64,000 bases of DNA, from the NCBI GenBank assembly GCA_025812035.1, contig GCA_025812035.1_4719.1. The stretch is one strand, 5' to 3'. A program made the position numbers and the translations under genes. Under the pieces are notes generated by a model. It was given only the letters and a program-made list of their open reading frames with translations. It was not told where the DNA came from and made no database searches. Source of the stretch: a phage. Positions 4,143 through 59,800 of this stretch are shown here, piece after piece; position 1 is the stretch's first letter, and each line of letters opens with the position of its first letter.

Positions 4143-4267
4143 TGGATTCCTGCTGAGTTATCGCTCAGCATGCAAGGCATCCCGCCGAAGCGAGACACCT
4201 TGCATTAACGGAAAATATTCGCGTTACCTTCTGAATTAATGATTCAGAATGCGATGCTAAAGCGTTA

Positions 4268-5056: not shown

Positions 5057-5129
5057 TTTCAGCCTCGTTACGTAGTGTGAATCAATTTCTGGTTCAGATG
5101 ATAGTTAATATTAGTTAAAAATTACAGCG

Positions 5130-10958: not shown

Positions 10959-11198
10959 TTAGCAATGGTTGTTAGTTGCTTCTATTTCGTCAAGATAAGG
11001 TTCTACGTCATCGCCCTCCACGAATTCGTTGAACCAGCAGTCAATGGTAGAAATAACCGGTGACTGGTGTTCACATTTCTTAGATACCTTAAAAGGTACG
11101 TTATTATCCATCATACCGAGTTCGGGTCGAAAACGCCCGAAATGTTTCGCAGTCCAAATGTCTGGGACGATATGGTTGTTCATCGTGGTGTTCAGCAT
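10959..11198 (-). CDS. RNAP beta-prime-like segment downstream of the catalytic motif (putative 3' exon or separate polypeptide)
   Basis: Translation ...TTMNNHIVPDIW...ELGMMDNNVPF parallels E. coli beta-prime [29 protein letters not shown] that directly follows NADFDGD; in-frame stop 2 codons upstream of the annotated ATG. Confidence 0.4.
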   Translation of the reverse strand: MLNTTMNNHIVPDIWTAKHFGRFRPELGMMDNNVPFKVSKKCEHQSPVISTIDCWFNEFVEGDDVEPYLDEIEATNNHC

Positions 11199-11574
11199 GA
11201 GTCGCTACCTCATACCCGCAGCTTTACCTGCAGCTTCCGGTGTTACCGGAATGTCCAGAATACATCTTATCCATATTCCAAATGGAACGTAGGACTTCCG
11301 CGCTGGATCTCGCTTGAGACCACGTATTCGTTGAACCTGCGTTGTTTCACATTCTTGCAAACAAGAATGCCGTATTGCTACGCAACAACCAGGCTGCTGA
11401 TCGAACATTGTCATGTACGGTAGGCATCCCCGAAGGGACTGTCATTGAAGCCGCGTACATCCGCTACCTTGTTTCTACCTTATCGGTTCCTCTTACGAGG
11501 CGTAGCGGCCTTAGCCCTTCCCAGCAATTCACGGAATCCAAGCTCTTCCTTTCGGAAGGCAGGGCCTATGATTA
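11184..11574 (-). other. possible second intron or unexplained 390-nt spacer between the DGD micro-exon and the downstream beta-prime segment
   Basis: Contains GGTTCAACGAATACG (R-like) and AAGATGTATTC (S-like); ends ...ACG before ATGAACAACCAT; no convincing P1 pairing found by eye. Confidence 0.25.
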
Positions 11575-11587
11575 AGCGTCACCGTCG
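11575..11587 (-). other. candidate 13-nt micro-exon CGACGGTGACGCT completing NADF-DGDA
   Basis: Only GAYGGNGAY in the interrupted region; lies 20 nt after the endonuclease stop; joined to exon 1 at the proposed splice site it gives GAC TTC GAC GGT GAC GCT, restoring NADFDGD. Confidence 0.35.
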
Positions 11588-13028
11588 CTTACGTGCACCG
11601 ACGTTTATTAACTCATGGTTATCCACTGAAATACGGCGTTAGGGAAATAATCCTTCTTGCCGCGTTTTGAGATTTGCAATGCCATATTACTCGGAGACAA
11701 TCTGTAATGCCATGCTGCTTCATCGATAGAACTAAACTTCTTTGTTTCGCCGTTATCAAAGATGATTTTCAACGCTAGTTTAGGTAAATCGTCTTCCGTT
11801 TCTACTAGTTCGAAAGAATCGATATTCTCTGCCAGCGTTAACGGATCAACAGGTAATATCAGCCAACCAGCACGCTGCAATCCTCCACGTAGACTAATTT
11901 GTTTATTCAACGCAGGGGTAGCCATGCCAACTAACTTAGCAGCCAGCTTGCGGTCTTTAATATAAAGACGATAATCTCCGGTATTATTAATAGCATACAC
12001 ACCAAAGTTATTGAACGATACCTTTCCAGCATCGGAACTAGTAAAGCCTACAAAGTCGTGGCTGTCGGTAGCCACGTCGTATTTAAATGCTAATGGCTTG
12101 TTTCGACTGCCGCTAAGATACTTCTTGGCTGTAGATACCGATATGTTGAGATATCGTCCAATAGCATTCAAACTTTCTAGTTCGATGATTTCTCCTGTCA
12201 ATATGTCCTTTAACCGAACATTACCCATCGGTATTGGTGGTTTACCGACATAACCCAATTCACGATATGCGTGTTTCAAGTTATCTGAATCAGTAGCCCA
12301 TTCCAAATTTTCTAGTCTGTTATCCCAACGCACTCCATTAAGATGATTAGGGACACGACGGATTATACCTGACGTCGGATCTGGGTTAAATGTTTCAAGG
12401 ACGATCTGATGATGGTATTTCACTTTGTTGTTCCTAGTGAAAGCGCGATAGTTGTTTTTGCCCGACTTGGGTGGTTCAGTACGAAACAACACTGTCAGAC
12501 TAGACACATCTACTATCGTACCGTTCTTATTAACAACGATACCATCAAAACCATTAACAGGACGATAATCAGACAAACAATCTTCAGAAATTGCCTGTCC
12601 AACTAAAGGTTCACTCAATTTGACCTCCTTTATAAAAGAAGTCGGTGCACGTAATTATCGACTATATCTTCATCCTCGTTGCGAGGAGTCTCCCGTTTTG
12701 GTCTGTGTTTAACAGAGCCTACTCTACTCGACATCGCGTCTTTCGATAGTCTGTGAGCACACATCTTAACGAACATTCGTGGATTCCTAAGCAGGTGAAC
12801 GTTCTTGTTGAGATGCTTCGCTGCGGATTATTCCCGTCCTACCTCTTTTACCATACCCAGTTCATTACGCTGGCCCTCATCTGTGTCACCACGATGAGTT
12901 GGTGTGTAGTCCGATTACAGAAACTTCCCGTCAATTAGAGAGTTTTAACTACGTTCCTGTTACCAGAAACCCGACTCCGACGATATCAATTAAATCAACG
13001 TAAATTATTGATTTAATTGAAGAAACTG
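11588..13028 (-). mobile_element. putative group I intron carrying the HNH homing endonuclease ORF, inserted in the beta-prime catalytic motif
   Basis: Coding-strand elements upstream of the endonuclease ORF: CAGACTATCGAAAG (plus 12741-12753, R-like) and AAGATATAGTCG (plus 12659-12670, S-like); candidate guide sequence GAGTCGG (plus 12971-12977) pairs with exon end CCGACTT with a terminal U-G; proposed 5' splice after GACTT and 3' splice after GTAAG; boundaries are inferred. Confidence 0.5.
11608..12618 (-). CDS. HNH homing endonuclease (TTG start)
   Basis: HNH motif KYHHQIVLETFNPDP...NHLNGVRWDNRLENLEWAT plus C-terminal helix-turn-helix-like DNA-binding repeats; no in-frame ATG, starts at TTG with AAGGAGG 5-6 nt upstream; sits inside the interrupted beta-prime gene. 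Confidence 0.8.
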   Translation of the reverse strand: MSEPLVGQAISEDCLSDYRPVNGFDGIVVNKNGTIVDVSSLTVLFRTEPPKSGKNNYRAFTRNNKVKYHHQIVLETFNPDPTSGIIRRVPNHLNGVRWDNRLENLEWATDSDNLKHAYRELGYVGKPPIPMGNVRLKDILTGEIIELESLNAIGRYLNISVSTAKKYLSGSRNKPLAFKYDVATDSHDFVGFTSSDAGKVSFNNFGVYAINNTGDYRLYIKDRKLAAKLVGMATPALNKQISLRGGLQRAGWLILPVDPLTLAENIDSFELVETEDDLPKLALKIIFDNGETKKFSSIDEAAWHYRLSPSNMALQISKRGKKDYFPNAVFQWITMS

Positions 13029-14284
13029 AAGTCGGCATTATAACCTTTCAAGATCATCACGCTTAACCCGATGGTGTTATCCTGCGGATCGCGTTTAACC
13101 TTGGTGATTTCAAGACATTGGTTACTGCTTCGGTCAAGTGATGGATTTCGAACAAAACCACACACAATCCCATCAAACGGTGTATCAGCAATAAGCTCAT
13201 CGTGCAGCTCGCTCATCATCGGATGATAATTACGGACATGTTCCGCAACGAACGCACGTGCTGCTCTTGGTGAATAACCACGATGGAATAACTTGGATTG
13301 GATATGTTCTTTATTGGTTAATGTAAATGGCGCGTATGGGAAATGCAGATGATAATAACGATGGTTCGCTGTTATCGAACTGATTACGGTACGCGTGGTG
13401 AATGGATGTAATGTACCTAATATGTTTTTACGTGTGATACCTTTCTTCTTACCGATGAACTCATCGAAAATCGCCGAGTGGTACTGCAGCAGCTTCAGTT
13501 GTACTTTCGCCATCCAGTTTTCTTTCTTTCTGGCGCTCAAAGGTGTTGTTGGGTGATAGATACTATTCAATGTACCGATAGCATCGATCGCACCTTCCAT
13601 TTTGCTATCTGCATAACGACCGGTTGGTGTATTCTCGATAACGAACATCATGGCGGCAGGAAAACTGATATACTGGCTGAAGAACTTATCGCGATGAATG
13701 CGGGTGAATTCTCGTAGCGTATCAACTTTCTCCGTGTTCTTCGGTCCGCGTAACGTAGGTCCTTTATACAAGATCTCCATGATGCGATCGAAGTTCTGTA
13801 TAAAGCTATTTATCCCACGTCGTATCCCGAATACATCGAATTGCTGCTCCAGATAGTTCTTGAGTTCGATGGGTCGTTTTACGTTTGGACGGTAACTGGC
13901 ATCAATGAGCCACGTCATCGTTTCAAAGCTTTTGATATTCAACTCGCTTGCCAGCACGAGATGGACCAACGGGTTAATAAACGCATCAATTCCTTCAGGA
14001 ACACGCGCCCAAACCGTCGAACGAATCTCTTGTTCTGCTGGGTAGGTTACAACCGTTTTACAGTTTGGACACACCGTGCCAAGCAGCTCACCACGATTGT
14101 AGAAACCACATCCACATTGTGGTGTGATATCCAACGTATCGCTGGAGTAAACACGGGTGATAAAACTGTTTAATTTCTTCTTCTCTTCGACGACTTTTGT
14201 GTCGTAATCATTCAACAAAATAGGCGTAAAAGGAAGTTCTGCGAGCTGTCTATCGAAACTCACGATATCGAGCATGATGGCCAT
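13013..14284 (-). CDS. multisubunit RNA polymerase beta-prime N-terminal portion (exon 1), ORF runs into intron
   Basis: Zinc ribbon CGCGFYNRGELLGTVCPNCKTVV (compare E. coli [23 protein letters not shown]); GKKKGITRKNILGTLHPFTTRTVISS (compare [23 protein letters not shown]); frame ends GYNADF-SFFN-stop, i.e. inside NADFDGD. Confidence 0.75.
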   Translation of the reverse strand: MAIMLDIVSFDRQLAELPFTPILLNDYDTKVVEEKKKLNSFITRVYSSDTLDITPQCGCGFYNRGELLGTVCPNCKTVVTYPAEQEIRSTVWARVPEGIDAFINPLVHLVLASELNIKSFETMTWLIDASYRPNVKRPIELKNYLEQQFDVFGIRRGINSFIQNFDRIMEILYKGPTLRGPKNTEKVDTLREFTRIHRDKFFSQYISFPAAMMFVIENTPTGRYADSKMEGAIDAIGTLNSIYHPTTPLSARKKENWMAKVQLKLLQYHSAIFDEFIGKKKGITRKNILGTLHPFTTRTVISSITANHRYYHLHFPYAPFTLTNKEHIQSKLFHRGYSPRAARAFVAEHVRNYHPMMSELHDELIADTPFDGIVCGFVRNPSLDRSSNQCLEITKVKRDPQDNTIGLSVMILKGYNADFSFFN

Positions 14285-46396: not shown

Positions 46397-47206
46397 TTAC
46401 CACTGATTAAAGCTGCCCGCTTTAACGATGTCACAACGCAGATGGTTACATAACTGATCCAGGAAGACAACCGGACTGTCACCGGACAACATGGCCAGTG
46501 CGTGCTGACCACCAGAACGAACAACGAGATCATCAACCATTGGCGCAGTAATCGGGAGATCGTACGCGTCCATGATTGCTTTGGCTTCCTGTTCTACGTC
46601 TTTCTGAAACCCTTCCATCGTCGGAGAGTCATATTTGGTTGCAAACTCGATCCCAGGCAAGTTAACGTAATCGTAAGTCATCACGCGGGTCATAACGCGA
46701 CGGCGCTCACGTTGCCAGATTTGGGGATCGGTTAACGCACGAACTGAAAAACACACGTTCACTAGCGGTGTTTCAAAATCCTTACGTAACGCATCACCGT
46801 ACGGACCACAAGGAATAACGTCCCCCATCACCATCACGACAGGACGACCACGACGATCACGTCCAGCTTCTTCCAACCAAATCTTAGAAAAGCAATGACT
46901 CACTTTGGTTTCTTCGATTCGTAATGCGCGCTGTAAAAAGCTGGTGGCATCCTGACCGATCTCTGGTTTAGGGTGACCGTATTCACCTTTCAGCGAACGA
47001 TTGCGTGCGTTTGTTTGCAGTAAGCTGTTTTCCAGGAACAACGGTTTCGAACGCTCAAGTTCGTAATATTCTTCGGTATTGTTAAAACAGTTAAACCCAC
47101 CGATAACACAGGTGTAGGCACCGTCAGCGTTAGGACGGATAATACCTTTTTTATTCACACCAAGATAACTGGTGCAAACAAGATTACTAATTGGTGGTTG
47201 CATCAT
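46397..47206 (-). CDS. hypothetical protein
   Basis: ORF in track. Confidence 0.5.
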   Translation of the reverse strand: MMQPPISNLVCTSYLGVNKKGIIRPNADGAYTCVIGGFNCFNNTEEYYELERSKPLFLENSLLQTNARNRSLKGEYGHPKPEIGQDATSFLQRALRIEETKVSHCFSKIWLEEAGRDRRGRPVVMVMGDVIPCGPYGDALRKDFETPLVNVCFSVRALTDPQIWQRERRRVMTRVMTYDYVNLPGIEFATKYDSPTMEGFQKDVEQEAKAIMDAYDLPITAPMVDDLVVRSGGQHALAMLSGDSPVVFLDQLCNHLRCDIVKAGSFNQW

Positions 47207-48016: not shown

Positions 48017-48727
48017 TCACCCCCTCAGAATCGCTTCTGTTTCGCTGATCGTGTCCGCGGGATAAACCAAACTACTATCGATTGCATTGTTCACGTAACC
48101 ACCCATCAGGTTGGTGATGGTGTTTGTGCCGCTATCGATAATGTTTCGTAATCCGATGTCGATGGCTTTTAACGTGCTGCGTTCTTCATCTGAAAGCAGA
48201 CGCCACGCCCGACGGCGATCGTTGGGGTCACGCGTGGTGATAGAAGCCAGAACAGAATAGATACTGCTATCCGCATTCAATTTAACACCGGCCAATTTCG
48301 CCGATGTGTAGAGCAGCTGATATTTTTCTTTTTCAGTATACCACCATGGCACTTTACCGAGTGTATAGATCTCGTTATACATCAGCCATGGGAAAGAGTT
48401 TCGCATCACGACATCGGTCGACACCAACACCGTGTCACCAGGAAGAAATACGAACTCGTAAAACGGCTGACCATCCATGGTAATTTCACGGATGTCAGAC
48501 GGGTCGATATGGAGCTGGGTCAATGCGTGGCTGACACCATACTGACCATCAGGAAGAATAATCGGGCAGCACGCACAAACCCGGTTCTCACTCCCAATGA
48601 TAGATAAACCCAATCCCTCGTAACGGACGGGCGTCAGAATCGAACACCCGCCACGAGTAACAACAGATTTATCTTCTTGTATGTCCCAGTCCGCAAGCAC
48701 CGCAGCACCGTTGCGGACAAGCGCCAT
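48017..48727 (-). CDS. hypothetical protein
   Basis: ORF in track; abuts neighbours. Confidence 0.5.
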   Translation of the reverse strand: MALVRNGAAVLADWDIQEDKSVVTRGGCSILTPVRYEGLGLSIIGSENRVCACCPIILPDGQYGVSHALTQLHIDPSDIREITMDGQPFYEFVFLPGDTVLVSTDVVMRNSFPWLMYNEIYTLGKVPWWYTEKEKYQLLYTSAKLAGVKLNADSSIYSVLASITTRDPNDRRRAWRLLSDEERSTLKAIDIGLRNIIDSGTNTITNLMGGYVNNAIDSSLVYPADTISETEAILRG

Positions 48728-50251
48728 TTACACCTCGCTAATCTGGATAACGTAAAGCTGCTGGGCCACGTAATCGGTGGTCAGATGCATTGTTGCGATG
48801 GTTGCTGCTTCGAATACCGTAAGTTCAGGACGTTCACGCATAATCAAATCGATTTCATCGATGAGACGGTTAACACCTTGAGCGTCTTCATGATGCATCG
48901 TTTTCACGTAGAGCGTACGGAAATACTGCTGGAAATTAGCTACGTCGGTATCGGTAAGGTTAGCAACTTCACCACGCACAATTTCCATGACCTTCTTACG
49001 GGCATCTTCGTCGAGGTCGACCGTAATCAGATCAGCGAACACACCCTGCAATGCCAGCGCGTATGCACGTAAGCGGTTTGCGGCCTGCTGACTGGCTTTC
49101 ATGTTGATGTAGTTACGGTAATGCTGCATGAAGCCTGCACCGTTAGCCAGCAGTTCATCTTTACTGATGAGTTCACGCTCTAACAGAACGGCTGCGGTTA
49201 ATGCTTCCGGTGAACCACCTTCTTGCAGATAACCCATGTAAACATCCGCGTTAACGAAAATCGTCATCGTTGACGCATCTTCAGCACGTTGAATCTGAGA
49301 AGCTGACGGCGCAGAAAGAATCAGCTCGCCACGCTCCATACGCAAGATACGATCACGACCGACGCGCGCCATCCCGTTGATCGCCGCAGCGCGAGCTTGT
49401 TGCATTTTAGCGCGGTAGTTTTCAAGCATCATGTCGTTGCCGTCCTGGATATCTTCCAGCAGGTTAACGGCCCACATATAGCAGAGGAATGCAGGAGTTG
49501 CCGCAGCGCGCGAACCATGGAATGCAACGTTATCGCTATCTGGGTACGTAATCAGATAAGCGGTGATGTTCGAAGAAGGGGCGGAACCACGGAAGAAAAG
49601 GTTGTAAATGTCTTCCAGTGCCTGATCGCTCATCCCTTCCGTTGCTTGCTGTACAAAACGATCCAGGTTTTCATTACCGGTATACAGCAACGTACGCAGC
49701 TTGTCACCAGTGATAAATGCAAGCTTTTCGGTTGGGGTGAAATCGTTATTAATCGAAATCAAGCCATTGAGATCATAATCGCTAACTAATGCCTGATATT
49801 CTTCGGAGTTATAAAACTCAGGATAGTAACTCAGGCTTACCGTCGGGATCAGTTTCGGTGCCAGGATGATCGAATCGATACGTTTTTCCAGTTCCGGGTA
49901 CAGCGCACGGCATTTCGGCAGGATGGTATTACGCGCCAACTCTTTGGCATACACCACTTTTTCCACCACGTCTTGAACTGCGGTCTGTAAAACTTCATCG
50001 TGGATATAAACCTCGCGTTCGCTGGCAGGTGCTACAGCGCCATCTTCGGTTTCATCAAGTGTTTCAGCAACAACCATACGTTCAGCACTGAGCTGCACCA
50101 ACGCATCAGCGTCTTCTGGTGGTTGGTTCCAATGCATGGTTTCACAAACTGCGGCTAACGGAGTGCCTGGAATCGCAGCAACGATTTGATTACGTTTGAT
50201 AAACCCTTCAACAATAGGCTCAACGGCATAAACAGTTTTATTGGTGATCAT
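48728..50251 (-). CDS. hypothetical protein (507 aa)
   Basis: ORF in track. Confidence 0.55.
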   Translation of the reverse strand: MITNKTVYAVEPIVEGFIKRNQIVAAIPGTPLAAVCETMHWNQPPEDADALVQLSAERMVVAETLDETEDGAVAPASEREVYIHDEVLQTAVQDVVEKVVYAKELARNTILPKCRALYPELEKRIDSIILAPKLIPTVSLSYYPEFYNSEEYQALVSDYDLNGLISINNDFTPTEKLAFITGDKLRTLLYTGNENLDRFVQQATEGMSDQALEDIYNLFFRGSAPSSNITAYLITYPDSDNVAFHGSRAAATPAFLCYMWAVNLLEDIQDGNDMMLENYRAKMQQARAAAINGMARVGRDRILRMERGELILSAPSASQIQRAEDASTMTIFVNADVYMGYLQEGGSPEALTAAVLLERELISKDELLANGAGFMQHYRNYINMKASQQAANRLRAYALALQGVFADLITVDLDEDARKKVMEIVRGEVANLTDTDVANFQQYFRTLYVKTMHHEDAQGVNRLIDEIDLIMRERPELTVFEAATIATMHLTTDYVAQQLYVIQISEV

Positions 50252-50484
50252 TACTGCGCTCCCTCCAACGCATTACTACCTACGGGTTCTTTGGTTTCCA
50301 AACGGCTGTTTAAACGCGCAGCAACCGCATCTTCCAGCCCCAACGGCATAACCTTTTTGTTCACGTCAGGATCGGCAGCATCATTACCAACGGTTTGACG
50401 TACGACCTCAGCAACCAACGTTACCGCGTTCGTCAGCGCAACAAAGCTCGCTGCTCGAGCCGTGTTAAGTTGTTCTTGGTTCAT
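50251..50484 (-). CDS. hypothetical small protein
   Basis: ORF in track; stop overlaps next start. Confidence 0.4.
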   Translation of the reverse strand: MNQEQLNTARAASFVALTNAVTLVAEVVRQTVGNDAADPDVNKKVMPLGLEDAVAARLNSRLETKEPVGSNALEGAQ

Positions 50485-50559
50485 TCACTTTTCCTTTTAA
50501 TGTCAGAGCATCGCATTCTTGACATACGTCAAGAAGGTACTGCGTTCAGCGAAATAAAC

Positions 50560-50585
50560 GAGCAGGGGCATGAAGCCCCCTGCTC
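50560..50585 (-). terminator. intrinsic terminator-like hairpin after the beta-like RNAP gene
   Basis: GAGCAGGGG-loop-CCCCTGCTC then CGUUUAUUUCG on coding strand. Confidence 0.5.
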
Positions 50586-53500
50586 TTATTTAGCGTCGTT
50601 AAAATAAATATCAACAGCTCGTTCCGTTGCGTAGAGGAGACCAAGGTTCACAGTCCCAACCACTTCCGGCGAAGCGATGATACGGTTAGCGATACTGGTG
50701 CCACTGAAGATAGCATCAAGGGTGTGCCCGTCTTCGGTTTTGTTCACACCATGACCCACGGAAGAGACAACGGATTTCGCTTGTGCTGCGAAGGTACCCT
50801 TATCACCCATCCCCGCACCAAGGTCGTAACGCATGAAAATACGGATGGCGATCTGGTTCTCGCCTAACGGATTACCGTCTATTCTCACGTTACTGTTGTT
50901 GATACGCCCCGTCGTTGCTTCATTGAGTTTCAGTTCCTTGACGCGTTTAGCTCGCGCTTTATCCGCATCGCCGACGAGCGCCGCCATGGTTTCACTCATA
51001 TCCTCAATCTGAGCGCGGTACAGCACATCGATCTGTACAACTTCACCATGAACGTCAGCACGTGGGTTATACTGACTCATACGACGTAATGCTTCAACAG
51101 CTTCCTGACTCTCATCACTCAGATCGGTTGCGATCGGTTCTTCCAGTGTTGCAAGAATCGTTCGAGGTTCAACATGATCGCCGATTTTTACGAGACCACG
51201 AATGTTGAGATGGGCGTCAACAATGAGCGTACGGCTCTTAATCGATGGTGTTACGAGACGATCGGCAAGATTGTCGAAGATATACGAACTGTCCTCGTGC
51301 GTCTCTGGAATATCCAGAATACCGACAAGAGACAGGACGCCTGCGCGCCAAACAACCTGACCTGGGTTCCACCAATCGCGTTTAAAATAAAGACGATGGA
51401 AAACCACCACGTCCTGATCCTTAACGCGATCCCCAACTTTATAATCGGTAATGAGGTCGTGAGGATAATACTTACCTGGTCCTTTCCCGATTATCGTACC
51501 GAGTTGGAAAACCTCTTCTCCTAACTCTGGATCGTCGTATTGTACCGTAAGCGCAGTTTTGGTGACCTTCTTAACAACACCATCGCCTTGGGCAGCTGCG
51601 GCGAAGAGTTTACCGACACGATGCGCGATAACAGTCTCGCCACCCGTACGCCATGGTTGTACATCGTAACCTTCAGCAGCAATCATGCGGTTGTGTTGGA
51701 TCCCGACGAAGACCAGACGTTTTCCATCGTCACGGTCTACAGCCGGAACAGCTAACGCCGATGTACTCATTACCGATGAGATGCCGTCTGTCTTTTCATC
51801 GAATGGTCGTGTTTCACCATATACAGACACGATATTAGCATTAGGTGCCAGATAGGCAGAAATACCTACATCCCCGCTATCCTTCGTACCTTCTGATACA
51901 ATACCGACATCTGACTTATCGTATTCACGATCGCGTGCGCGGCGAAGCGATGTCTTTGAGCGACCCCCGATACCGGTCATCGTTGCTTCTTCACCCTGCT
52001 TGATATCCAGCATCGGGTTGGTTTCATCGATCACGATGGACGCGCTGTCGTCGAGAATTTGGTTCCAGACACTCACTGGACTGATTGAGATTTTCTGTCG
52101 GTTTCCTTGACTGCTGTTCTCGTTTTGACGAATAGCACCAACCAGGTCCTTATACACCAGCTCAGCGAACTTATCGTACGTTTTAAAACGTTGGTAGTTC
52201 ACATCGTTCGTGTTAGGTGCCCAATCATCCAGAAGCAGTTCAACAGCACGCAGCAACAACATGGCGAAATCGGTAGGTTCTCCCATGTTCTGTAATAGCG
52301 TACGGCTTACCGGATCGACGAAAAGACGCTCCATGAGTTCAAGTTCGCGTAAATGGCGAACCTTAAGTCCAGCACCATCGACAACGTTAAAATAGATATC
52401 TCGATTGTCAAAAGCACCGCGAGCGTAACCGATGTAGTTACGGTATTCGTTAAACCCACCCATCAACAACGTCGTCATGCGATCGTCTTTACTGAAGATC
52501 AAACTTTCGTCGTCGAAGCTCACCGCGAACTCGTCTGATGCTAAACCCATACGAGAGCCACGAGGAACAGTACGATAATTCGCTTTAAGATGTTCTAATA
52601 ACGGGGTAAGCCCACCCAGATAACTTAGAACAACGCCAACCGGAATACGTACGCCCATGAATTCAAGATCGGCAGCTTCGATTGGCATCTTAGCCGCATT
52701 GATGCCGAAGAAATCAGGGAACGTCCCTACAGGTGTTGGTGTTTGTCCTGACTGACAGATATAGAGCTGGTTGCGTTCATCGATCGCTAAGAATTCGCCC
52801 GACGTATTACGCGCGAACGTCAGGAGTCCTTCGGCTAACTGTTCGTTGAACCGATCTTCCCCAATGAACTCCGGTAACGTTTTTATATCGAGACGTATAT
52901 CCCAATCAGCGAATTGGATTTGGGTATAATTGCGCGCAAGCACGGCGAAGTAATACGGGACTTTGACAGCCGGATCAAAGACGTTACCACGTTTTAACGT
53001 TGTTAAGGGCGAGGACTTATCGTAATACATCGCCGTAAGTTGACGTGTTAGCCAACGACCAGCGTTATTAACGACGCGCTCTGAACGTTTAACGAACACC
53101 TTACCGTAGGCGGTACTCAACGCAACTTCGGATGACGATACCTTTCTAATAGGTTTATCAACGCGCTGTTTACGCATCCGGTACTTGATACCGTTAACAA
53201 CATAAATGCCATCCTTACGAACCTTCGGCAACATCACCGGGAACGTGGTTGGGACACCGCCTACAGGAGCCAGTTTAATCGTGATGACTTGATAATCCCC
53301 CATCACGTCAACAACATCTTCAACTTTATATCCCGTAACAGGGTAACCTGCTTGCTGTACCGCAACAACGGCAGCTGCGATGTCCTTTTGCATTACATGT
53401 TCAACGTAATGTTTATCCCACACCGCGAGCGTTGATTTACATAAGCTCTTATCAACGATAACATCCGCTTCCGGCATAACCTTTGCGGGAGCTAGTTTCG

Positions 53501-54932
53501 CGGCTTTTGGTTTAACTTCAACATATTCAGCGAGCGTTAATCCAGAACCGTCAGGTGCTTCGATTTCGTGGATGGCGTCAGCATTACGCATCGCTGCTTT
53601 ATATTGGACGCCACTTAACTGACCTGCATCCGCCAGATCGCTCGCACGCACCAACACCGCATCCGATAACGACTGAATATACTCACCATGTGTTTTTGGT
53701 AACGTTGCTGCGTCAAAGACATCAACCTTTTCTTCGGCGGTATCGTCGGGGACGACTTCGAAGAGATCGTCGGTAATGTCCTGATCTTCATCAGGTTGGA
53801 AATCCGGTTGTACTTCTACCCCAGGTACTTCACGAACATCTTCAAACGTGCGCTCTACGATTGCGTTCCACGCATCAGCATCATCGTCTTCATCCGACCC
53901 ACCGACCAACTCCGCTTCTAACTCATCGGGGTCAAGAACAGTGGCCAGATCCTCACCGTTAGGAAGCACGACATCGCGATCATCGTACTCCGCATCCGGG
54001 CTGTCCGCAAGAATATCTCGCTCTTGACGAAGAACCTGTTCCTCTTCTTGTTTCTGTTCTTCTTCATTCGCGCTCTGCGACCACAGACGTGTTACCGCCA
54101 TCATCCAACGACGCTGGAAGGTTTCAAGTGTCGTTTTATCGAGTTCTTCCCCTTCCTTTACGAGCCCGGTACGCCATTCCTCCAGCAGACCGAGATTCAG
54201 CGTAAAGAAGTACACACCGTCTGTAAATACAACGTTAAGCTTATCCAGCGTGGCTCTGTCTAACGAAGCCATCGTGCTGTTCTCACGATCGGTTCCCAAC
54301 CAGCGGAAGAAGTCAAAGAACGACAGCTCCTCCGGTGTGGCGAAATTCATGAGGTTGTTACGGGTCGGTGCCTGTTGCGTGGTACGCATCAACGAAATCT
54401 TCGGCAATGTTGACGGTATACGGAACAACAAAAAGTGTTGACGATCGCTTTGCTGGGCGATTTCGTTGGCTTTCGACCAAATTGTTTTACGTACGTTGAA
54501 CCACTCATCGTACCAACGGGTGAGCGTTGGACGATAGATGTACATGTGGTTAAGATGCGCGTAGTTAGCAACGATCTGCGCGTTGATGTTTTTCTCCACC
54601 GTGCTTAGATCGGTAACCAAACGAAAACGACGATGTGATGCACGATAATCCAATTTCGCTCGTGGAAGTTGGAATCGTTGATCGCGTCGAGGTGCGCCCT
54701 GTTTGGTTGCGAGATCATCAGCAAACGAAATCCATAGTTGAGCATTTTCTTTACTCAGCATGTATTCGTTTTCTGGAGGACCTATCAATGATGGATCCGT
54801 TGCGGTGTAATGATAGACAGCATAACGCGGCAGCTGCAATAGCTGCACTAAACGTAATCTCGGTGACAATAGCTCTTGGTATCGTCTGACGCCAAACTGT
54901 CGGTAGTAATCAAGGTATTTAAGTTTTGCCAT
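50586..54932 (-). CDS. multisubunit RNA polymerase beta-like subunit (large, divergent; likely virion RNAP component)
   Basis: C-terminal region IAIRIFMRYDLGAGMGDKGTFAAQAKSVVSSV...EDGHTLDAIFSGTSIANRII parallels beta-subunit [30 protein letters not shown]...[26 protein letters not shown]; ORF ends before the RFGEME region; hairpin plus U-tract after the stop. Confidence 0.6.
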   Translation of the reverse strand: MAKLKYLDYYRQFGVRRYQELLSPRLRLVQLLQLPRYAVYHYTATDPSLIGPPENEYMLSKENAQLWISFADDLATKQGAPRRDQRFQLPRAKLDYRASHRRFRLVTDLSTVEKNINAQIVANYAHLNHMYIYRPTLTRWYDEWFNVRKTIWSKANEIAQQSDRQHFLLFRIPSTLPKISLMRTTQQAPTRNNLMNFATPEELSFFDFFRWLGTDRENSTMASLDRATLDKLNVVFTDGVYFFTLNLGLLEEWRTGLVKEGEELDKTTLETFQRRWMMAVTRLWSQSANEEEQKQEEEQVLRQERDILADSPDAEYDDRDVVLPNGEDLATVLDPDELEAELVGGSDEDDDADAWNAIVERTFEDVREVPGVEVQPDFQPDEDQDITDDLFEVVPDDTAEEKVDVFDAATLPKTHGEYIQSLSDAVLVRASDLADAGQLSGVQYKAAMRNADAIHEIEAPDGSGLTLAEYVEVKPKAAKLAPAKVMPEADVIVDKSLCKSTLAVWDKHYVEHVMQKDIAAAVVAVQQAGYPVTGYKVEDVVDVMGDYQVITIKLAPVGGVPTTFPVMLPKVRKDGIYVVNGIKYRMRKQRVDKPIRKVSSSEVALSTAYGKVFVKRSERVVNNAGRWLTRQLTAMYYDKSSPLTTLKRGNVFDPAVKVPYYFAVLARNYTQIQFADWDIRLDIKTLPEFIGEDRFNEQLAEGLLTFARNTSGEFLAIDERNQLYICQSGQTPTPVGTFPDFFGINAAKMPIEAADLEFMGVRIPVGVVLSYLGGLTPLLEHLKANYRTVPRGSRMGLASDEFAVSFDDESLIFSKDDRMTTLLMGGFNEYRNYIGYARGAFDNRDIYFNVVDGAGLKVRHLRELELMERLFVDPVSRTLLQNMGEPTDFAMLLLRAVELLLDDWAPNTNDVNYQRFKTYDKFAELVYKDLVGAIRQNENSSQGNRQKISISPVSVWNQILDDSASIVIDETNPMLDIKQGEEATMTGIGGRSKTSLRRARDREYDKSDVGIVSEGTKDSGDVGISAYLAPNANIVSVYGETRPFDEKTDGISSVMSTSALAVPAVDRDDGKRLVFVGIQHNRMIAAEGYDVQPWRTGGETVIAHRVGKLFAAAAQGDGVVKKVTKTALTVQYDDPELGEEVFQLGTIIGKGPGKYYPHDLITDYKVGDRVKDQDVVVFHRLYFKRDWWNPGQVVWRAGVLSLVGILDIPETHEDSSYIFDNLADRLVTPSIKSRTLIVDAHLNIRGLVKIGDHVEPRTILATLEEPIATDLSDESQEAVEALRRMSQYNPRADVHGEVVQIDVLYRAQIEDMSETMAALVGDADKARAKRVKELKLNEATTGRINNSNVRIDGNPLGENQIAIRIFMRYDLGAGMGDKGTFAAQAKSVVSSVGHGVNKTEDGHTLDAIFSGTSIANRIIASPEVVGTVNLGLLYATERAVDIYFNDAK

Positions 54933-54935
54933 GGG

Positions 54936-56582
54936 TTAGGCTCCACGAGGTCCCGTTAAGTTGCGTAATAGGAACGCAACCGTATCGTAACCAATATCGA
55001 TGTTGAATTTATTTTTACCACTTACCCAGAAAGCACGTTTCTTGTGCGAGTTGGTAATTTCGTCAATGGCTTCCATGGAATAAAGAACGTTAACCGAGAC
55101 CGTATCGCCATCAAAGTCCCCACCAAGTCCGGCGAGGTACGGGGCTGGAACAATAGTCGTTTCTACGAACGAAGCATTAGGTAACCAATCTGGGTATTCC
55201 CATGCGATAAATCGCTCATCCGTTATTGGTTCCCAGTTACTATCCAGTTCGGTTTTCGGTTTTGCTGCAACGGTCGTACGCGCATAACAGGTTAACGGAA
55301 TGACGGATTGCATACCCGATACCGGATAACGTGTTACCATCGCTGCCAGGTTATTCCAGTATTTATATCCAGCAATATAGATAAGCTCAGTATACGTAAT
55401 GGGGTGAACATCCGCCCCGGGTTTGTTAAGCATCTCTGGGGGTAATTCACTCATACCACGGAATAACCGAAACGAATCATTATTCACATAGACCAGGCAG
55501 AGATAACGTCCATTGACCATGATAGGTTCGTTACGCACACCTGGATCGCTTAAGGTGTTCAGTAAACGTTCTATCCCATCCCATGTTGTAAAGTCATCGA
55601 TGGTGTCTGGATCAAGCGTGACGCGTTCACGTTCCATCGTTTCGGTATCAATAAGTTCAACTTCTGTAACATCACGGACAAATATTTCCTGCAAAATCCC
55701 CGTACGTAACGCATGTTGCGTTACTGGGAGAGCAGCTTTACTCATCTGGTATAACCCTAACTGAACTGCAGTACAGGAAGGCTGGTTAGGCGACCCTAGT
55801 ACCTCCGTTGTGGGGTTAATTGCTGAAATAACGTTACGGGTTGAGTTCCAAACACGACGTGAGCCGAACTTACCTTGGAAGATCCCTTTCTTACCTTGGA
55901 ACATATCCAACAACAAAGCGTAGATGTCGTTAAATGTTCTCTGTAAGCTCCAGCGCTGACCGTCGTAAACGGGATCCGAATAATCTTTTAATCCATCCGG
56001 GACGGTGTTAGAAATTGCCAGGAAACGACGATACAACTCTGTGATTTCTTGCTCGCTTTCATACCCGCCTTCTTTTACTTCTATTTCACGTAAACCCGCA
56101 GGTAAAACCAGTAGATGACGAGTCATCGCTTTGAACATGTTCTCTTCGACAACCTTGATTCGTAGCTCTCGTTGAGCTGAACCCGTTGAAACGAACTTGA
56201 TATCAGCGACGTGTTGTGCAAAGAACCCGTATCCTGTTTGTCCTGTTAGCGCATCGGACGCAACGAAGTCACGTTGTTCAGGATCCCAACGCGCGTACGC
56301 CTTCCCCGACATGATATCACCGTAGAGGTGTTTTAGTCGAATGAGACGATCGTAGATGACAGGGTGTAGGATTTCAACTTTGCATTCAATCACCGCAAAT
56401 CGACGGTCTCGATCTTCGCTACCCGCACTACCAAAGATGGTGTATGAATAGAAACCGTCATCGTGGAAATTACCGGTGCTTGGATCACGAATGCTCATGC
56501 TCGTGATCTTGGGGAGAAAACGTAACTGCTGTTTATCGAGGTGTAAAATGCTAATATTAAACGGCTCTCTGACTTTAGCCAT
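54936..56582 (-). CDS. multisubunit RNA polymerase beta-prime N-terminal-like subunit without zinc ribbon (start trimmed to MAKVREPF)
   Basis: RRFAVIECKVEILHPVIY (compare beta-prime RMGHIELAAPVAHIW), GKKGIFQGKFGSRRVWNSTRNVISAINP (compare [27 protein letters not shown]) and intact GGDFDGDTVSVN catalytic motif; GAGGAG 8 nt before ATG at 56582. Confidence 0.65.
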   Translation of the reverse strand: MAKVREPFNISILHLDKQQLRFLPKITSMSIRDPSTGNFHDDGFYSYTIFGSAGSEDRDRRFAVIECKVEILHPVIYDRLIRLKHLYGDIMSGKAYARWDPEQRDFVASDALTGQTGYGFFAQHVADIKFVSTGSAQRELRIKVVEENMFKAMTRHLLVLPAGLREIEVKEGGYESEQEITELYRRFLAISNTVPDGLKDYSDPVYDGQRWSLQRTFNDIYALLLDMFQGKKGIFQGKFGSRRVWNSTRNVISAINPTTEVLGSPNQPSCTAVQLGLYQMSKAALPVTQHALRTGILQEIFVRDVTEVELIDTETMERERVTLDPDTIDDFTTWDGIERLLNTLSDPGVRNEPIMVNGRYLCLVYVNNDSFRLFRGMSELPPEMLNKPGADVHPITYTELIYIAGYKYWNNLAAMVTRYPVSGMQSVIPLTCYARTTVAAKPKTELDSNWEPITDERFIAWEYPDWLPNASFVETTIVPAPYLAGLGGDFDGDTVSVNVLYSMEAIDEITNSHKKRAFWVSGKNKFNIDIGYDTVAFLLRNLTGPRGA

Positions 56583-56702
56583 GGAGACACTCCTCTTTAC
56601 CACCACCGGCGGCGGTATCATCTGAACACACGAGAGACGTAATGGGTGATGGCGTCACCCATCGCTTCCTTGCTTGAGGCGAGGAAGTTATTAGGTTACG
56701 TA

Positions 56703-56725
56703 CCTGTTTGATAAAATCAAACAGG
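56703..56725. promoter_or_regulatory. perfect 10-bp-arm palindrome in divergent intergenic region
   Basis: CCTGTTTGAT-AAA-ATCAAACAGG between the beta-prime-like gene (start 56582) and the giant gene (start 56825). Confidence 0.4.
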
Positions 56726-56824
56726 CGATGTGTGAAGTTACGCTTCAACATTATCAATGCCGAAGGTAAACTTCGTGCATCACGTTCCAACGTAACATGG
56801 GAACGTATCGAACTGGAGGTATAC

Positions 56825-59800
56825 ATGGTAGATAAAACCCGTGTTGAGGGTGATGATAATTGGGACAACTGGGATGAAGACTTCTCCCTGGATCTCGATT
56901 TTAACGAGCCTAAAGACGATCGTAAACCAATAACACGCTTTGCGATAGGAGCGGTTAAAGGTGCTGCTGAGGATCTTACTTCCTACGAAAGAATGAAGGA
57001 GATCGCCAGAAACGCATTGCCTAAGGGCTATAGCGACGGTATGGATCTTATCGATTCCGCCGTCGGATCCACGAAGGAACTATACAATGAAGCCGTTCGT
57101 GATGTTCTTCCTAAGGTCCAAAGCTCAAAACGGTTAGCAGCACAACTAACCAAGAAATATCGTGCAAGCATGCCCGATTTCTCGAAGAAAATTATCGAGC
57201 GTTGGGAGCAAGAAGCCAAAGAAGAAGACGAACGTAAACAGGCTGAAGCAGAACTCAAGCAACGCATGGCGAACGCGGGAGATGATGAAATCGCCCGTAA
57301 GGTTGCCGAAGCGTTAGGCGAGTCAGCAAACCAAAGCGCGGATCAGTTTGCCGAACAGCAAGCAAAAGAAAGTATCCGTGACGATATTGCCGACAAACGG
57401 TACGCTGTAACCAACAAACAAATGAGTGCGATGCAAGAAGGCGTCGCCAAGATGGTTGGTTTCAACAACGAATTCGCTGCACGCTACATGCGTAAAAGCC
57501 TGGAACTGAAATATCGTTCCTTAGCGATTCAACGTGCAAGTTTTGATCAGCATAAAAAGTTAGCCGAAGTCTATATCGGTTTATTACAAAACATCCAGAA
57601 GAACACGGCTTTACCTGATGCAGCTAAAGCGAAAATGTCGGAAGAATTCCGTCGTAGTGCATACCAACGTTTCTTTGGTAATGCGTTAGATGCGATGAGT
57701 TCTTTCGAGAGCCGTTTCTTTGCCGATGTTAAGAAAAACCTTGCCACCAACGCATTAGGTGCTTTAAAAGGCGTCGTGTCTGGAGCAAACGATGCGTTAT
57801 ACGGTTTAAACGAAGCGCGTGACTCGATGTCCATGATGGATGGGATGGGGTCAGAAGGCGATATTAAGGAAATGCAAGGAAAGATGTTGGGTCAGTTTAT
57901 TGGCTCAACTGTTGCACCATGGATGGCTAATAAAGGCATGATGGCATTACGCGATTTAGCAAAACGTCATCCCAATGCTAAATTCGCAAGTGCGTTAAAA
58001 GCCGTGGATCAAGGTGGTGAGGCCGCCGCCTACACAACGCGTAATATCGGTAAACTGCTCCAGGAAGATATTCGTAAAAACGAATTCAATCTTAACGATC
58101 CGTTTTACAAGCAGTTGTTACGTGGTGCAGGGCGTTGGGCGTTCAACATGGACAGTGGACGTAACTTCCGTGTGATGAACGACACCGCTGAAACACTGGC
58201 GGAGCAAACGTCATTCGATGGTTTGACTTACCGCAGCATCAATGAGGTTATTCCTGGTTTTCTTGCTCGCATTCTGAAAAGCAGTGAAGGCATCCGCACG
58301 GGAAACAGTGATCCCGACTACGAGGTCTATGACGGCATCAGCGGGCAATTCGTGGCTCAGCGCACGCGCGAACAAAGCGTCAACGACACACTGTTTAACA
58401 AACGTTCGTTTGGTTATTACGCGAGTCGTTTCAATGAGGTCATCTCGGTCATCGATCCCGATAAACAGTTATCGGAAAAAGCCAGGAAGGCATTGGCTAA
58501 ACAGCTGGCACGAGACAGTGACGCAAACATCGCATTCGACCCAGCTCGTTTTACGGATGAAAGTAACTTCGATCGCAGTATCGACCGTGACGCTATTAAG
58601 GAACTTTCCACGTACTTCCGTGACCGTTACGGTATTCGCGATCATGTCGATGATAAGGGCGAACGTCAGCAAGTCATTGAAAACCGCGGGCAATATTACA
58701 CGGAACGTAACCGAGCGGATCTTCGTTACGGTAATCTGAAATCCTTACAGCCGGATATCCAGCGTAACCTTAACCTACTGAAACGTACTGGCGACGTCCA
58801 ATATCTGGAACGTATCGGTATCGTAACAAGAAATAGTGACGGTAGCTACTCGGTTAACCACGATCGGTATTTCTCTGAAATCGATCAATACATCGATCGA
58901 CCAGAGTACGCTGACCGCGGCGATGTCAGTACGCGATTAACCGATCAGGAAACAAGAGCGCTGGCGCTGGGTTATCGTGACGCAAAACCATCAACTGGCG
59001 ACGTCCAAAATTCTGGTCTGCCGAACATCGATCGTAAGGCTGCTGGAACAGTAACCGTTGATGAAAACATCGGTTACGATAAATGGTGGAATGACGCAGG
59101 TGTTATCACCACATCGCTTGAAGAACAGAATCGAGCATGGCAAGAGCTTTATCTCGAAGCGCTGTCTGAAGCATCCGAACAACGTGTTGAGATGCTTGCG
59201 TTACTGAAAGCCATTTCTGAGAAAGACTGGTCTAATAACGTTTCGCTGGATGGCGAAGACGTACCTGAAGGTACAGCACCCATTTCGTTTATCGATCGCG
59301 CTAAACAAAAACTCGGTACACACAACCTCTTTAAACGTGGTCGTAATCTCCTCTGGAAAGGAATTAAAAATACCGCACGGTTGGGTGTTAAAGGTGCGCG
59401 TTGGGGTGCAGAACGCACGTTGGGTAGTTTGGTAAATTCTGGCCGACGTATTATCAACTTCAACCGCTTCGTGTTCGGCGCATTATCCAAGGTTGATCAG
59501 GTTCCATTCGACATTTACGTTAAAGGGGAATCCCAACCGCGTATATTGGCAGCCAAGCTTCGTCAGGGGTTATACTTCGACGAAGCTACGGGAAAAGCCG
59601 TAAAACGGATGAAGGATATCAAAGGCCCACTCGTTGATGCAGATGGAAACATCGTAATCAGCAACGAGGATATCGAGAAAGGGCTGGTCACTCGCGCCGG
59701 TCGTGCTTTTGAGAATTCGGGACTTAAAGCGTGGGCGCGTGAAGGCCTTAATGGGATAACAACGGTATTAAGTCTACCACGGATGTTAAAACGCGGTGCG

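Follow-up and report, generated by a model that had tools for sequence, protein, structure and literature searches.

Two genes of a Goslar-like jumbo phage attributed to a split, virion-packaged RNA polymerase and free of the introns of close relatives

Two co-oriented genes on the minus strand, at positions 50586-56582 of the window (the whole 64,000-nucleotide stretch of contig GCA_025812035.1_4719.1), almost certainly specify two of the subunits that make up the multisubunit RNA polymerase (vRNAP) packaged in the virions of a Goslar-like chimallivirus. The 548-aa product is taken as the N-terminal portion of beta-prime, with DFDGD and no zinc ribbon, and the 1448-aa product as the N-terminal and larger portion of beta, both subunits being split; the latter product begins with a lineage-specific extension of about 450 residues and ends after the GDK...NRII region. 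The reality of this RNAP-like pair, proposed in a first-pass annotation from the letters of the DNA, was borne out by PHROG, profile and PDB-chain matches. The whole window is collinear with Escherichia phage vB_EcoM_Goslar (NC_048170), a chimallin-encoding, nucleus-forming jumbo phage of the genus Goslarvirus, at about 94-95% nucleotide identity (95.3% in the vRNAP region). The vRNAP system described here is therefore already known, virion proteomics having been published for the 95%-identical phage, and the phage is of the nucleus-forming jumbo type of E. coli. A single detail is new: neither vRNAP gene contains the mobile introns found in close relatives.

The features of the vRNAP region are as follows:
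50586..54932, minus strand, gene for the major, N-terminal subunit of vRNAP beta, 1448 aa; orthologous to Goslar gp207, and counterpart of phiKZ gp178 on the grounds of family and synteny
54936..56582, minus strand, gene for the N-terminal subunit of vRNAP beta-prime, 548 aa; orthologous to Goslar gp205 (both exons, 1 and 2), 201phi2-1 gp275 and phiKZ gp180
56590..56597, minus strand, Shine-Dalgarno sequence AAGAGGAG, read from the sequence, 7 nt upstream of the ATG at 56582
55104..55118, minus strand, DFDGD codons (GAC TTT GAT GGC GAT), catalytic Mg-binding motif of beta-prime, residues 489-493 of 548, near the C-terminus
50560..50585, minus strand, intrinsic-terminator-like G+C-rich hairpin (9 bp, 7 G-C pairs) followed by a T-run, directly after the beta gene stop
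48017..48727, minus strand, homologue of Goslar gp210, 236 aa, by collinearity with Goslar; PHROG 2926 'virion structural protein', E = 4e-56

The 1448-aa gene begins 3 nt past the stop codon of the 548-aa gene, and a terminator is annotated in the same place, after the beta gene, in Goslar; together the two genes make up a single translationally coupled unit, ended by the hairpin. In Goslar numbering the gene order is prohead protease, gp211, gp210, gp209, gp208, beta N-terminal, beta-prime N-terminal and the 2260-aa lysin-bearing tail gene, a block syntenic with phiKZ gp175-gp181, which agrees with the earlier placement of the pair among virion genes. The window also contains a chimallin gene at 14377-16272 (Pfam PF25677, E = 1e-27) and, at 24229-25209, a homologue by collinearity of the annotated PhuZ tubulin gene of Goslar (gp234), so that chimallin, PhuZ tubulin and two multisubunit RNAP gene sets, the context of the Chimalliviridae, occur in one genome.

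The mechanical ORF of the beta-prime-like gene extends from 54936 to 56621 (561 aa). No Shine-Dalgarno sequence was found, by reading the sequence, before the ATG at 56621, and this start was rejected in favour of 56582 on account of the strong Shine-Dalgarno sequence that precedes the latter; the start at 56582 is also the one used by the Goslar annotation and by the PHROG alignment. Residues 16-556 of the 561-aa ORF match positions 3-538 of the 539 of PHROG 2986 (E = 2e-179), and a tblastn search with the protein returned 310 phage records, 286 of them covering at least 80% of its length. The family profile matched the beta-prime chain of the AR9 non-virion RNAP (nvRNAP; 7s01_d, E = 1e-20) and residues 212-356 of E. 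coli beta-prime (E = 7e-11), and the DFDGD of the 548-aa protein aligns with the DYDGD of AR9 beta-prime. The description of the gene as beta-prime-like, its DFDGD intact and its zinc ribbon missing, agrees with the family alignment: an N-terminal zinc ribbon was not found in the 548-aa protein, the stretch FGSAGSEDRDRRFAVIECKVEILHPV between the FG and HP landmarks holding a single Cys, and none of the seven other homologues in the eight-member alignment has a Cys in the same stretch.

The 1448-aa protein matches PHROG 3148 over practically its full length (E = 0, residues 4-1443 against profile positions 2-1420 of 1424), and its family profile aligns with the beta chain of Thermus thermophilus (1iw7_C, E = 1.5e-17) in three colinear blocks, which cover the fork/region D, the EHDD-type region and the GDK region:
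Block 1, profile 938-1007, T. thermophilus beta 394-464
Block 2, profile 1014-1145, T. thermophilus beta 529-656
Block 3, profile 1328-1379, T. thermophilus beta 822-875
The C-terminal part of the protein, GMGDKGTFAAQAKSVV...EDGHTLDAIFSGTSIANRII, lies in the block aligned to residues 822-875 (vGDKlanrhGNKGVv...dG.pvDvil), and the protein stops about 35 residues past NRII and the aligned block, so the earlier reading of a beta C-terminus that halts before RFGEME was correct. This endpoint is shared by nearly all of the 150 cluster representatives among the matches listed, the total being 2215 representatives at E <= 1e-3 and 1301 at E <= 1e-30. An extension specific to the family takes up residues 1 to about 450 and includes an acidic linker (about 285-400). 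The equivalent of the RFGEME segment would be located on a separate small protein of the Goslar gp196 type, encoded outside the window; in Goslar gp196, a 224-aa protein labelled vRNAP, the stretches ...TNQPTGDSKGSTWSQPEMQATLG and ...QPTGDSKGSTWSQPEMQ... would on an unscored motif reading be the counterpart of the RFGEME segment of beta.

The presence of such proteins in the particle is documented in relatives. By LC-MS/MS of purified Goslar virions, gp205 and gp207 were detected and labelled vRNAP together with gp78, gp196 and gp210, gp207 being represented by 47 peptides (46.6% coverage, about 9-21 copies per virion) and gp205 by 10 peptides (about 5-12 copies per virion) (10.64898/2026.04.21.720040). 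The virion proteomics proposed as a check is thus already in print for orthologues of both proteins. The annotation of 201phi2-1 gp275 reads 'identified using mass spectrometry; similar to phiKZ gp180', GFP-tagged Goslar gp196 enters virions and colocalises with the injected DNA in the early vesicle (10.1101/2023.09.20.558163), and phiKZ Gp178, Gp80 and Gp149 co-immunoprecipitate with Gp180 (PMC10612078). In this particular phage too the 548-aa and 1448-aa proteins are predicted to be packaged, on the strength of their orthology to proteins of Goslar, 201phi2-1 and phiKZ.

The first-pass annotation had placed all remaining subunits outside the window. This holds for the counterparts of Goslar gp196 (the beta C-terminal piece) and gp78 and fails for the gp210 homologue, whose gene lies 1.9 kb downstream of the vRNAP pair. 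Goslar gp210 was detected in virions and labelled as a fifth vRNAP subunit in Table S4 of the same preprint (10.64898/2026.04.21.720040), and on that label the gp210-type protein is regarded as a putative vRNAP subunit; the 236-aa homologue gave no PDB match with phmmer and no detectable similarity to beta or beta-prime.

Location among virion genes would also suit RNAP-derived structural or ejection proteins that are catalytically dead and are kept for scaffolding rather than transcription, as would the large non-RNAP N-terminal extension of the beta-like protein with its acidic linker, and the targeting of the phiKZ gp178 gene by PhiPA3 gp210 disrupts capsid assembly (PMC11620839), a hint of a structural role. 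However, the three D and the G of DFDGD stay the same in all eight homologues of the family alignment, whose phages infect hosts of eight genera; conservation extends to beta blocks D, E/F and H, the GDK lysine included, and early transcription in phiKZ and Goslar has been attributed to the vRNAP. Moreover, between the 548-aa gene and spliced Goslar gp205 there are 91 nucleotide differences and one changed residue in 548, and between the 1448-aa gene and gp207 there are 195 nucleotide differences and 10 changed residues in 1448; so few amino-acid changes among so many nucleotide changes point to strong purifying selection on both genes. The loss of catalysis is accordingly considered very improbable.

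The second polymerase of the genome is represented by the zinc-ribbon gene, a neighbour of chimallin that falls in the non-virion beta-prime family, together with phiKZ gp55 and 201phi2-1 gp107. Its zinc ribbon and its non-virion family stood up to analysis; the segment 13013-14284, given earlier as the gene, includes only exon 1 of an intron-split gene:
10959..14284, minus strand, non-virion RNAP beta-prime N-terminal gene; PHROG 2987, E = 4e-117
13029-14284, minus strand, exon 1, with the zinc ribbon CGC-x12-CPNC
11588-13028, minus strand, intron 1, with an HNH ORF at 11608-12618 and RF00028 (47.8 bits) at 12642-13019
11575-11587, minus strand, 13-nt mini-exon; junctions from relatives L014 and L015
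11184-11574, minus strand, intron 2; junctions from the same relatives
10959-11183, minus strand, exon 3; junctions from the same relatives
The two group I introns cut the gene inside NADFDGD, and intronless homologues run across the junction.

Both sets being beta/beta-prime homologues, the assignment might be reversed, the packaged enzyme then including the zinc-ribbon product and the pair at 50586-56582 forming the non-virion (middle/late) polymerase. The 548-aa protein does match PHROG 2987, the non-virion family, weakly (E = 1.5e-5), but this score is more than 170 orders of magnitude away from that on PHROG 2986, and together with the missing zinc ribbon it sets the protein apart from the non-virion beta-prime of the phiKZ gp55 type. 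The best solved relative of the 548-aa protein is likewise a non-virion enzyme, the AR9 nvRNAP beta-prime; all solved phage RNAPs matched in these searches are non-virion and no solved vRNAP chain was found in them, so that the AR9 match says nothing on packaging. The virion mass spectrometry, in which gp205 and gp207 of Goslar carry the vRNAP label, and the case of 201phi2-1, where the phiKZ gp180-type gp275 was identified by mass spectrometry and the homologue of 13013-14284 is the phiKZ gp55-type gp107, also speak against a reversal, which is exceedingly improbable. The orthology to Goslar, 201phi2-1 and phiKZ and the separation of PHROG 2986 from 2987 support the view, put forward at first reading, of a packaged virion RNAP and a separate non-virion RNAP, both split.

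The beta and beta-prime homology of the two proteins is visible only with family profiles. The HMM check suggested earlier gave a divided answer, as the Pfam RNAP domain models matched neither protein, even at E <= 0.1, a failure ascribed to the high divergence of vRNAP proteins, and the family profiles did match solved beta and beta-prime chains. A single-sequence phmmer search of the 1448-aa protein against the PDB likewise returned no RNAP chain and only an irrelevant weak match. Chance motifs in unrelated large phage proteins, which these two blanks could suggest, are refuted by profile matches to dozens of solved beta and beta-prime chains, colinear, multi-block and reaching 1e-17 and 1e-20, and by the PHROG scores and the 2215 cluster matches.

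From the work on phiKZ and Goslar, the steps of assembly, packaging and transcription by the vRNAP can be inferred. The 548-aa and 1448-aa proteins would join the small beta C-terminal piece of the Goslar gp196 type and a beta-prime C-terminal piece, presumably of the gp78 type, together with a small accessory protein of the gp210 type. Each capsid would hold some ten enzyme molecules, to be ejected along with the DNA, after which the vRNAP would transcribe the earliest genes, including those for chimallin and the second, non-virion RNAP. This early transcription would take place inside the early-infection vesicle and be independent of the host polymerase.

Compared with known systems, the pair is closest to Goslar gp205/gp207 (NC_048170), with 95% DNA identity and the same neighbours, order and terminator. 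The phiKZ vRNAP set (gp178 beta-N, gp149 beta-C, gp180 beta-prime-N and gp80 beta-prime-C) shows the same split, and the earlier suggestion of an alignment to split jumbo-phage subunits places the 548-aa protein in the family of phiKZ gp180 and the 1448-aa protein in that of gp178. Identity to phiKZ and to 201phi2-1 gp275 is 35-42%, within the same families and a gp175-gp181-type neighbourhood; genus and host differ from phiKZ (Goslarvirus on E. coli), and the phiKZ-type enzyme is known as virion-packaged and active in early, host-independent transcription. Unlike the phiKZ set, Goslar-type phages are reported with a fifth vRNAP-labelled protein, gp210. The AR9 and phiKZ non-virion RNAPs (7S00/7S01 and the phiKZ nvRNAP structures) and bacterial RNAP share D(F/Y)DGD and the beta regions matching T. 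thermophilus 394-875, but the vRNAP beta-prime N-terminal protein is without their zinc ribbon and the vRNAP beta has about 450 aa of extra N-terminal region. The vRNAP of phage N4 and the schitoviruses belongs to a T7-like family. The same strategy is described for these phages, a polymerase that travels in the particle and leaves it with the DNA to begin early transcription (PMC13434306). The N4-type enzyme, reported to be a giant single polypeptide of about 3500 residues, is of a family unrelated to the split multisubunit beta/beta-prime.

What distinguishes the present genes is the state of two sites in their catalytic motifs:
55115..55116, minus strand, empty group I intron homing site between the codons for the first D and for F of DFDGD (GAC|TTT), from blastn breakpoints and junction sequences
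51725..51726, minus strand, second empty intron site, D1069/G1070 (GAT|GGA) in the beta DRDD motif, interrupted in relatives L016 and L018
At the first site the beta-prime N-terminal gene of Goslar is split by a 2044-nt intron (RF00028, 67.7 bits) with the HNH/NUMOD1 endonuclease ORF gp206, which matches Pfam HNH_3 and NUMOD1, and the IMG/VR relative L018 has an ORF-less intron of 510 nt (RF00028, 64.9 bits); in the present phage the gene is continuous, and six consecutive codons around the site differ synonymously from those of Goslar. At the second site the blastn match of L018 to the window ends at 51726, where a partial RF00028 match (37.3 bits) starts and is cut off by the locus end; in L016, whose blastn match ends at 51740, sequence reading puts the interruption at the same point as in L018. 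At the gathering threshold no Rfam match was found anywhere in the window, and both vRNAP ORFs are continuous. The catalytic motifs of both genes are thus uninterrupted at the two sites where close relatives have group I introns, and the intron-containing allele of the Goslar gp205/gp206 or PhiPA3 gp211/gp210/gp209 type is ruled out here, both sites being empty.

In phiKZ-type genomes an ORF179-like endonuclease lies between the two vRNAP genes, and Goslar gp206 is annotated as similar to phiKZ ORF179. In PhiPA3 the vRNAP beta gene (gp211/gp209) contains an intron-encoded HNH endonuclease, gp210, which attacks the intron-free gp178 of phiKZ (Birkholz et al. 2024, PMC11620839), and the intron site, described in that paper as following the second conserved Asp, matches the D1069/G1070 site of the DRDD motif found here. 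Intron-plus and intron-minus vRNAP alleles occur among phages able to co-infect, and the phage described here carries the intron-free, potentially targeted allele.

Megablast matched the region to Escherichia phage vB_EcoM_Goslar with 95.3% identity, and a blastn comparison of the window minus its last ~1.4 kb, which lie outside the Goslar stretch compared, showed the two to be collinear at about 94% identity with one large difference. The window encodes chimallin, a prohead protease, a PhuZ homologue, DNA polymerase, large terminase and tail sheath, and the source phage is a chimallivirus, i.e. a nucleus-forming jumbo phage. The features to which the following text refers are:

14377-16272: chimallin (Pfam PF25677, E = 1e-27)
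46397-47206: prohead protease
48017-48727, minus strand: homologue of Goslar gp210, 1.9 kb downstream of the beta gene
50560-50585, minus strand: G+C-rich hairpin of 9 bp with a T-run, directly 3' of the stop of the 1448-aa gene
7 nt 5' of the ATG at 56582, minus strand: Shine-Dalgarno sequence AAGAGGAG, from reading of the sequence

Two plus-strand ORFs, 14515-15195 (226 aa) and 15325-16266 (313 aa), lie wholly within the chimallin gene on the opposite strand; they are probably spurious, because no Goslar gene is annotated there.

The pair of genes under study occupies two co-oriented minus-strand ORFs, 54936-56621 and 50586-54932. Reading of the sequence showed that the ATG at 56621 is not preceded by a ribosome-binding site, and since AAGAGGAG lies 7 nt upstream of the ATG at 56582, the upstream ORF was taken to start there, which gives the 548-aa length proposed in the first-pass annotation. 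The stop of the 548-aa gene is separated from the start of the 1448-aa gene by 3 nt; this gap, together with the hairpin after the second stop, indicates that the two genes form one compact unit. The unit diverges, as that annotation had described, from the giant hydrolase-bearing gene, a 2260-aa gene (56708-63490) matching tail-fibre and endolysin families. A promoter scan of 50200-50700, the region downstream of the unit, gave no sigma-70 sites; phages of the chimallivirus type are not known to rely on host-type promoters.

Both proteins matched RNA polymerase families over their full length, the 1448-aa protein PHROG 3148 (E = 0) and the 548-aa protein PHROG 2986 (E = 2e-179), each family being named RNA polymerase beta subunit. 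Pfam showed no RNA polymerase domain in either protein at E <= 0.1; this silence is not evidence against homology, because the families are too divergent for generic models. A single-sequence phmmer search of the PDB with the 1448-aa protein gave no RNA polymerase chain, the sole match being an irrelevant reverse transcriptase (E = 0.28), and a word-indexed protein search with the same query returned only three matches, an alignment too shallow for structure prediction. Profiles built from family alignments were used in place of the single-sequence search. The beta-prime profile, built from an 8-member alignment of phages of eight host genera and searched against solved structures, matched the beta-prime subunit of the AR9 non-virion polymerase (E = 1e-20), chloroplast and cyanobacterial beta-prime/gamma chains (E ~1e-12) and residues 212-356 of Escherichia coli beta-prime (E = 7e-11), the D(F/Y)DGD block being colinear in these alignments. 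For the 1448-aa protein, HMMER found 2215 relatives at E <= 1e-3 among 1.84 billion cluster representatives, most of them 1300-1590 aa long and with the same end point, and a profile of 37 members matched the Thermus thermophilus beta subunit (E = 1.5e-17) in colinear blocks at residues 394-464, 529-656 and 822-875. The last of these blocks (GDK...G..D..L) is the GDK region that had been recognized by eye in the C-terminus of the 1448-aa protein. Such matches to solved chains show that the polymerase motifs reflect real homology and not chance. The zinc ribbon is indeed missing from the 548-aa protein, a trait of the family throughout the 8-member alignment, and the paralogue at 13013-14284 carries one (CGC-x12-CPNC).

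The 1448-aa protein also has a conserved extension of about 450 N-terminal residues before its beta-homologous part, matching no solved structure by sequence and holding a strongly acidic low-complexity linker at residues ~285-400 (EEEQKQEEEQ..., DEDDDAD).

The assignment of the two genes to a virion-packaged polymerase (vRNAP), and of the zinc-ribbon gene to a separate non-virion polymerase, both split into sub-polypeptides, is supported through orthologues in phages 201phi2-1, phiKZ and Goslar. In 201phi2-1 the orthologues are gp275 for the 548-aa protein, annotated as identified using mass spectrometry and similar to phiKZ gp180, and gp107 for the gene at 13013-14284, annotated as similar to phiKZ gp55. 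In phiKZ, Gp180 of the virion polymerase co-immunoprecipitates with Gp178, Gp80 and Gp149 (PMC10612078). Virion proteomics, suggested earlier as a check, has already been published for the sister phage, with the orthologues found in virions: Table S4 of the Goslar preprint lists, under a vRNAP label, gp207 (47 peptides, estimated at ~9-21 copies per virion) and gp205 (10 peptides, estimated at ~5-12 copies) (10.64898/2026.04.21.720040). A further Goslar vRNAP subunit, gp196, is packaged as a GFP fusion and, within the early-infection vesicle, where transcription is active, it colocalises with injected DNA (10.1101/2023.09.20.558163). Compared with Goslar, the 548-aa protein differs in 1 of 548 residues and the 1448-aa protein in 10 of 1448, with 91 and 195 nucleotide differences, respectively; the window pair and Goslar gp205/gp207 are orthologues under strong purifying selection. 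The pair is thus the known chimallivirus virion RNA polymerase, and the original interpretation is supported with minor corrections. The novelty of this identification is low, because the phage is 95% identical to the well-studied Goslar, whose orthologues have already been found in virions.

With the vRNAP, nucleus-forming jumbo phages begin transcription without the host polymerase, within a sealed early-infection vesicle. This host-polymerase-independent start is central to the resistance of these phages to host defences and to rifampicin.

The remaining subunits had been expected outside the window. This is correct for the homologues of Goslar gp196, which lies ~6.5 kb past the right edge of the window, and of gp78, which is distant, but not for the gp210 homologue, which is labelled as a fifth vRNAP subunit in Goslar and is located inside, at 48017-48727. 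No similarity of this homologue to beta or beta-prime was found, so its vRNAP status derives from the label in the Goslar paper. The possibility that it is a hidden C-terminal piece of beta was rejected, as it lacks an RFGEME-like motif and a PDB search with it gave no match. That piece is instead Goslar gp196 (224 aa), in which ...TNQPTGDSKGSTWSQPEMQATLG reads as the likely counterpart of the ...TQQPLGG... segment of beta. No further polymerase subunit was found when the ten largest of the remaining ORFs were searched. The segments directly downstream of the pair, 48017-48727 and 48728-50484 (minus strand), hold homologues of gp210, gp209 and gp208, none with known-fold similarity by sequence; gp209 and gp208 are reported at >200 copies per virion.

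The two vRNAP genes are uninterrupted in the window at positions where relatives carry introns. At 55115/55116 in the beta-prime gene, Goslar is longer by 2044 bases, which make up a group I intron (Rfam RF00028, 67.7 bits) whose ORF, gp206, is a 490-aa HNH_3/NUMOD1 endonuclease. It lies exactly between the first D and the F codons of DFDGD, with T as the last base of the 5' exon (GAT|) and G as that of the intron (...AAGG|TTC). Among Goslar-like genomes in IMG/VR, L016 is intron-free at this site too, and in L018 the Goslar intron occurs in the same place as a 510-nt form without an ORF (RF00028, 64.9 bits). With the window and L016 empty, Goslar with the endonuclease and L018 ORF-less, all three states of the homing cycle occur in one genus. 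In the beta gene, L016 (from ~8344) and L018 (from ~8867) are interrupted after GAT GAT (D-R-D-D|), and in L018 a partial RF00028 match of 37.3 bits, cut off at the end of the locus, begins at this point. The corresponding site, D1069|G1070 (51726|51725), is continuous in the window and in Goslar. In PhiPA3, the intron lies next to the second conserved Asp (Birkholz et al., PMC11620839), and by the description in that paper its site corresponds to D1069|G1070. Both vRNAP genes of the window are empty homing sites, with mobile group I introns of close relatives at those exact catalytic-motif codons. In several distant members of the beta family (P0076, P0122, P0126, P0130 and P0143), the sequence stops precisely at query position 929, which is the GDK-motif D (GD|K; D1377 in the window protein). 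These ends suggest a third recurrent interruption site, again in a catalytic motif, in other phages of the family.

The zinc-ribbon beta-prime gene placed at 13013-14284 has a real zinc ribbon, but this ORF represents just the first exon of a gene that is split; the exon ends ...GYNADF and runs on into SFFN and a stop. The arrangement is:

10959-14284, minus strand: non-virion beta-prime N-terminal gene with two group I introns within the NADFDGD codons
11588-13028, minus strand: intron 1, containing an HNH/NUMOD1 ORF (11608-12618)
12642-13019: RF00028-like core of intron 1 (47.8 bits in a permissive scan; cut-off 50)
11575-11587, minus strand: mini-exon of 13 nt, C GAC GGT GAC GCT
11184-11574, minus strand: intron 2, 391 nt, homologous to the core of the Goslar and L018 vRNAP intron

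At the gathering threshold Rfam found no group I intron in the whole window, and intron 2 gave no RF00028 match even at E <= 10; it was recognised only by homology to introns of relatives that do score. Beyond its 3' end lies an ORF with homology to what intronless homologues carry as their C-terminal part. In the Goslar record a single intron is annotated for the non-virion gene, intron 2 being left out, and no published description of the three-exon arrangement was found in the literature searched. For the last splice site, DGD+ARL+MLN and DGD+MLN were rejected, since the relatives L014 and L015, two Goslar-like IMG/VR contigs, show a conserved 3' hairpin module that reaches further; this longer module places the junction at GCT|...G|ATG AAC, reading DGDAMNNH. 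The predicted mature protein would have 497 aa (...NADFDGDAMNNHIVPD), with the DGD-to-PD spacing of 201phi2-1 gp107.

In L015, intron 1 is without the HNH ORF and its core abuts CGACGGTGACGCT directly; an additional intron of 365 nt is inserted 13 nt upstream of this point, so that 27 nt of coding sequence are broken by three introns, with two 13-nt mini-exons (4244-5365). L014 (4252-4976) lacks intron 1 and has, besides intron 2, a different intron that separates the A codon from the D codon. Together with the two sites of the window, this makes four distinct insertion sites in ~30 nt of coding sequence, which makes the non-virion beta-prime gene a hotspot for introns. The intron-2-type and vRNAP introns, not including intron 1, have in common a 3' hairpin with the loop GTAGCGA and a covarying stem; all 5' exons end in T bar one (GCC, in L014), and every intron ends in G. 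Intron 2 of the window is 36 nt longer than those of Goslar and L015. Its extra segment, 11325-11412, shows 92% identity across 88 nt to a portion of the vRNAP-gene intron that Goslar and L018 carry and the window lacks. This similarity suggests recombination between introns of the two paralogous beta-prime genes.

At the vRNAP beta-prime site, the intron-free alleles (window and L016) read GAC|TTT and the intron-bearing alleles (Goslar and L018) GAT|TTC. The empty site in the window is GGTGGGGAC|TTTGATGGC and the spliced Goslar junction GGCGGTGAT|TTCGACGGT. Against Goslar, six consecutive codons around the site all carry a synonymous third-position difference. A divergence this high is reached by only 0.3% of the 18-nt windows across the two genes. 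An equally dense divergent patch is found ~280 nt upstream. These differences could have an ordinary origin: exon flanks may have been co-converted in past homing events, and intron-bearing alleles need a U at position -1. It is conceivable, although we consider it rather unlikely, that the intron-free allele was recoded as a protection from the Goslar-type HNH endonuclease gp206. The endonuclease of the PhiPA3 intron, gp210, nicks phiKZ gp178, which has no intron, and so gives its own phage an advantage in competition (PMC11620839). Such intron-mediated interference competition has so far been shown only for PhiPA3 against phiKZ; if protective recoding were true, such competition would be actively under way at the vRNAP genes of E. 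coli chimalliviruses. The present data add, as a modest contribution, the intron-free state of both vRNAP genes and the finding that Goslar-like phages are polymorphic for introns at catalytic-motif codons. The natural empty, ORF-less and endonuclease-bearing alleles could be used in an E. coli system for testing intron endonucleases as co-infection weapons.
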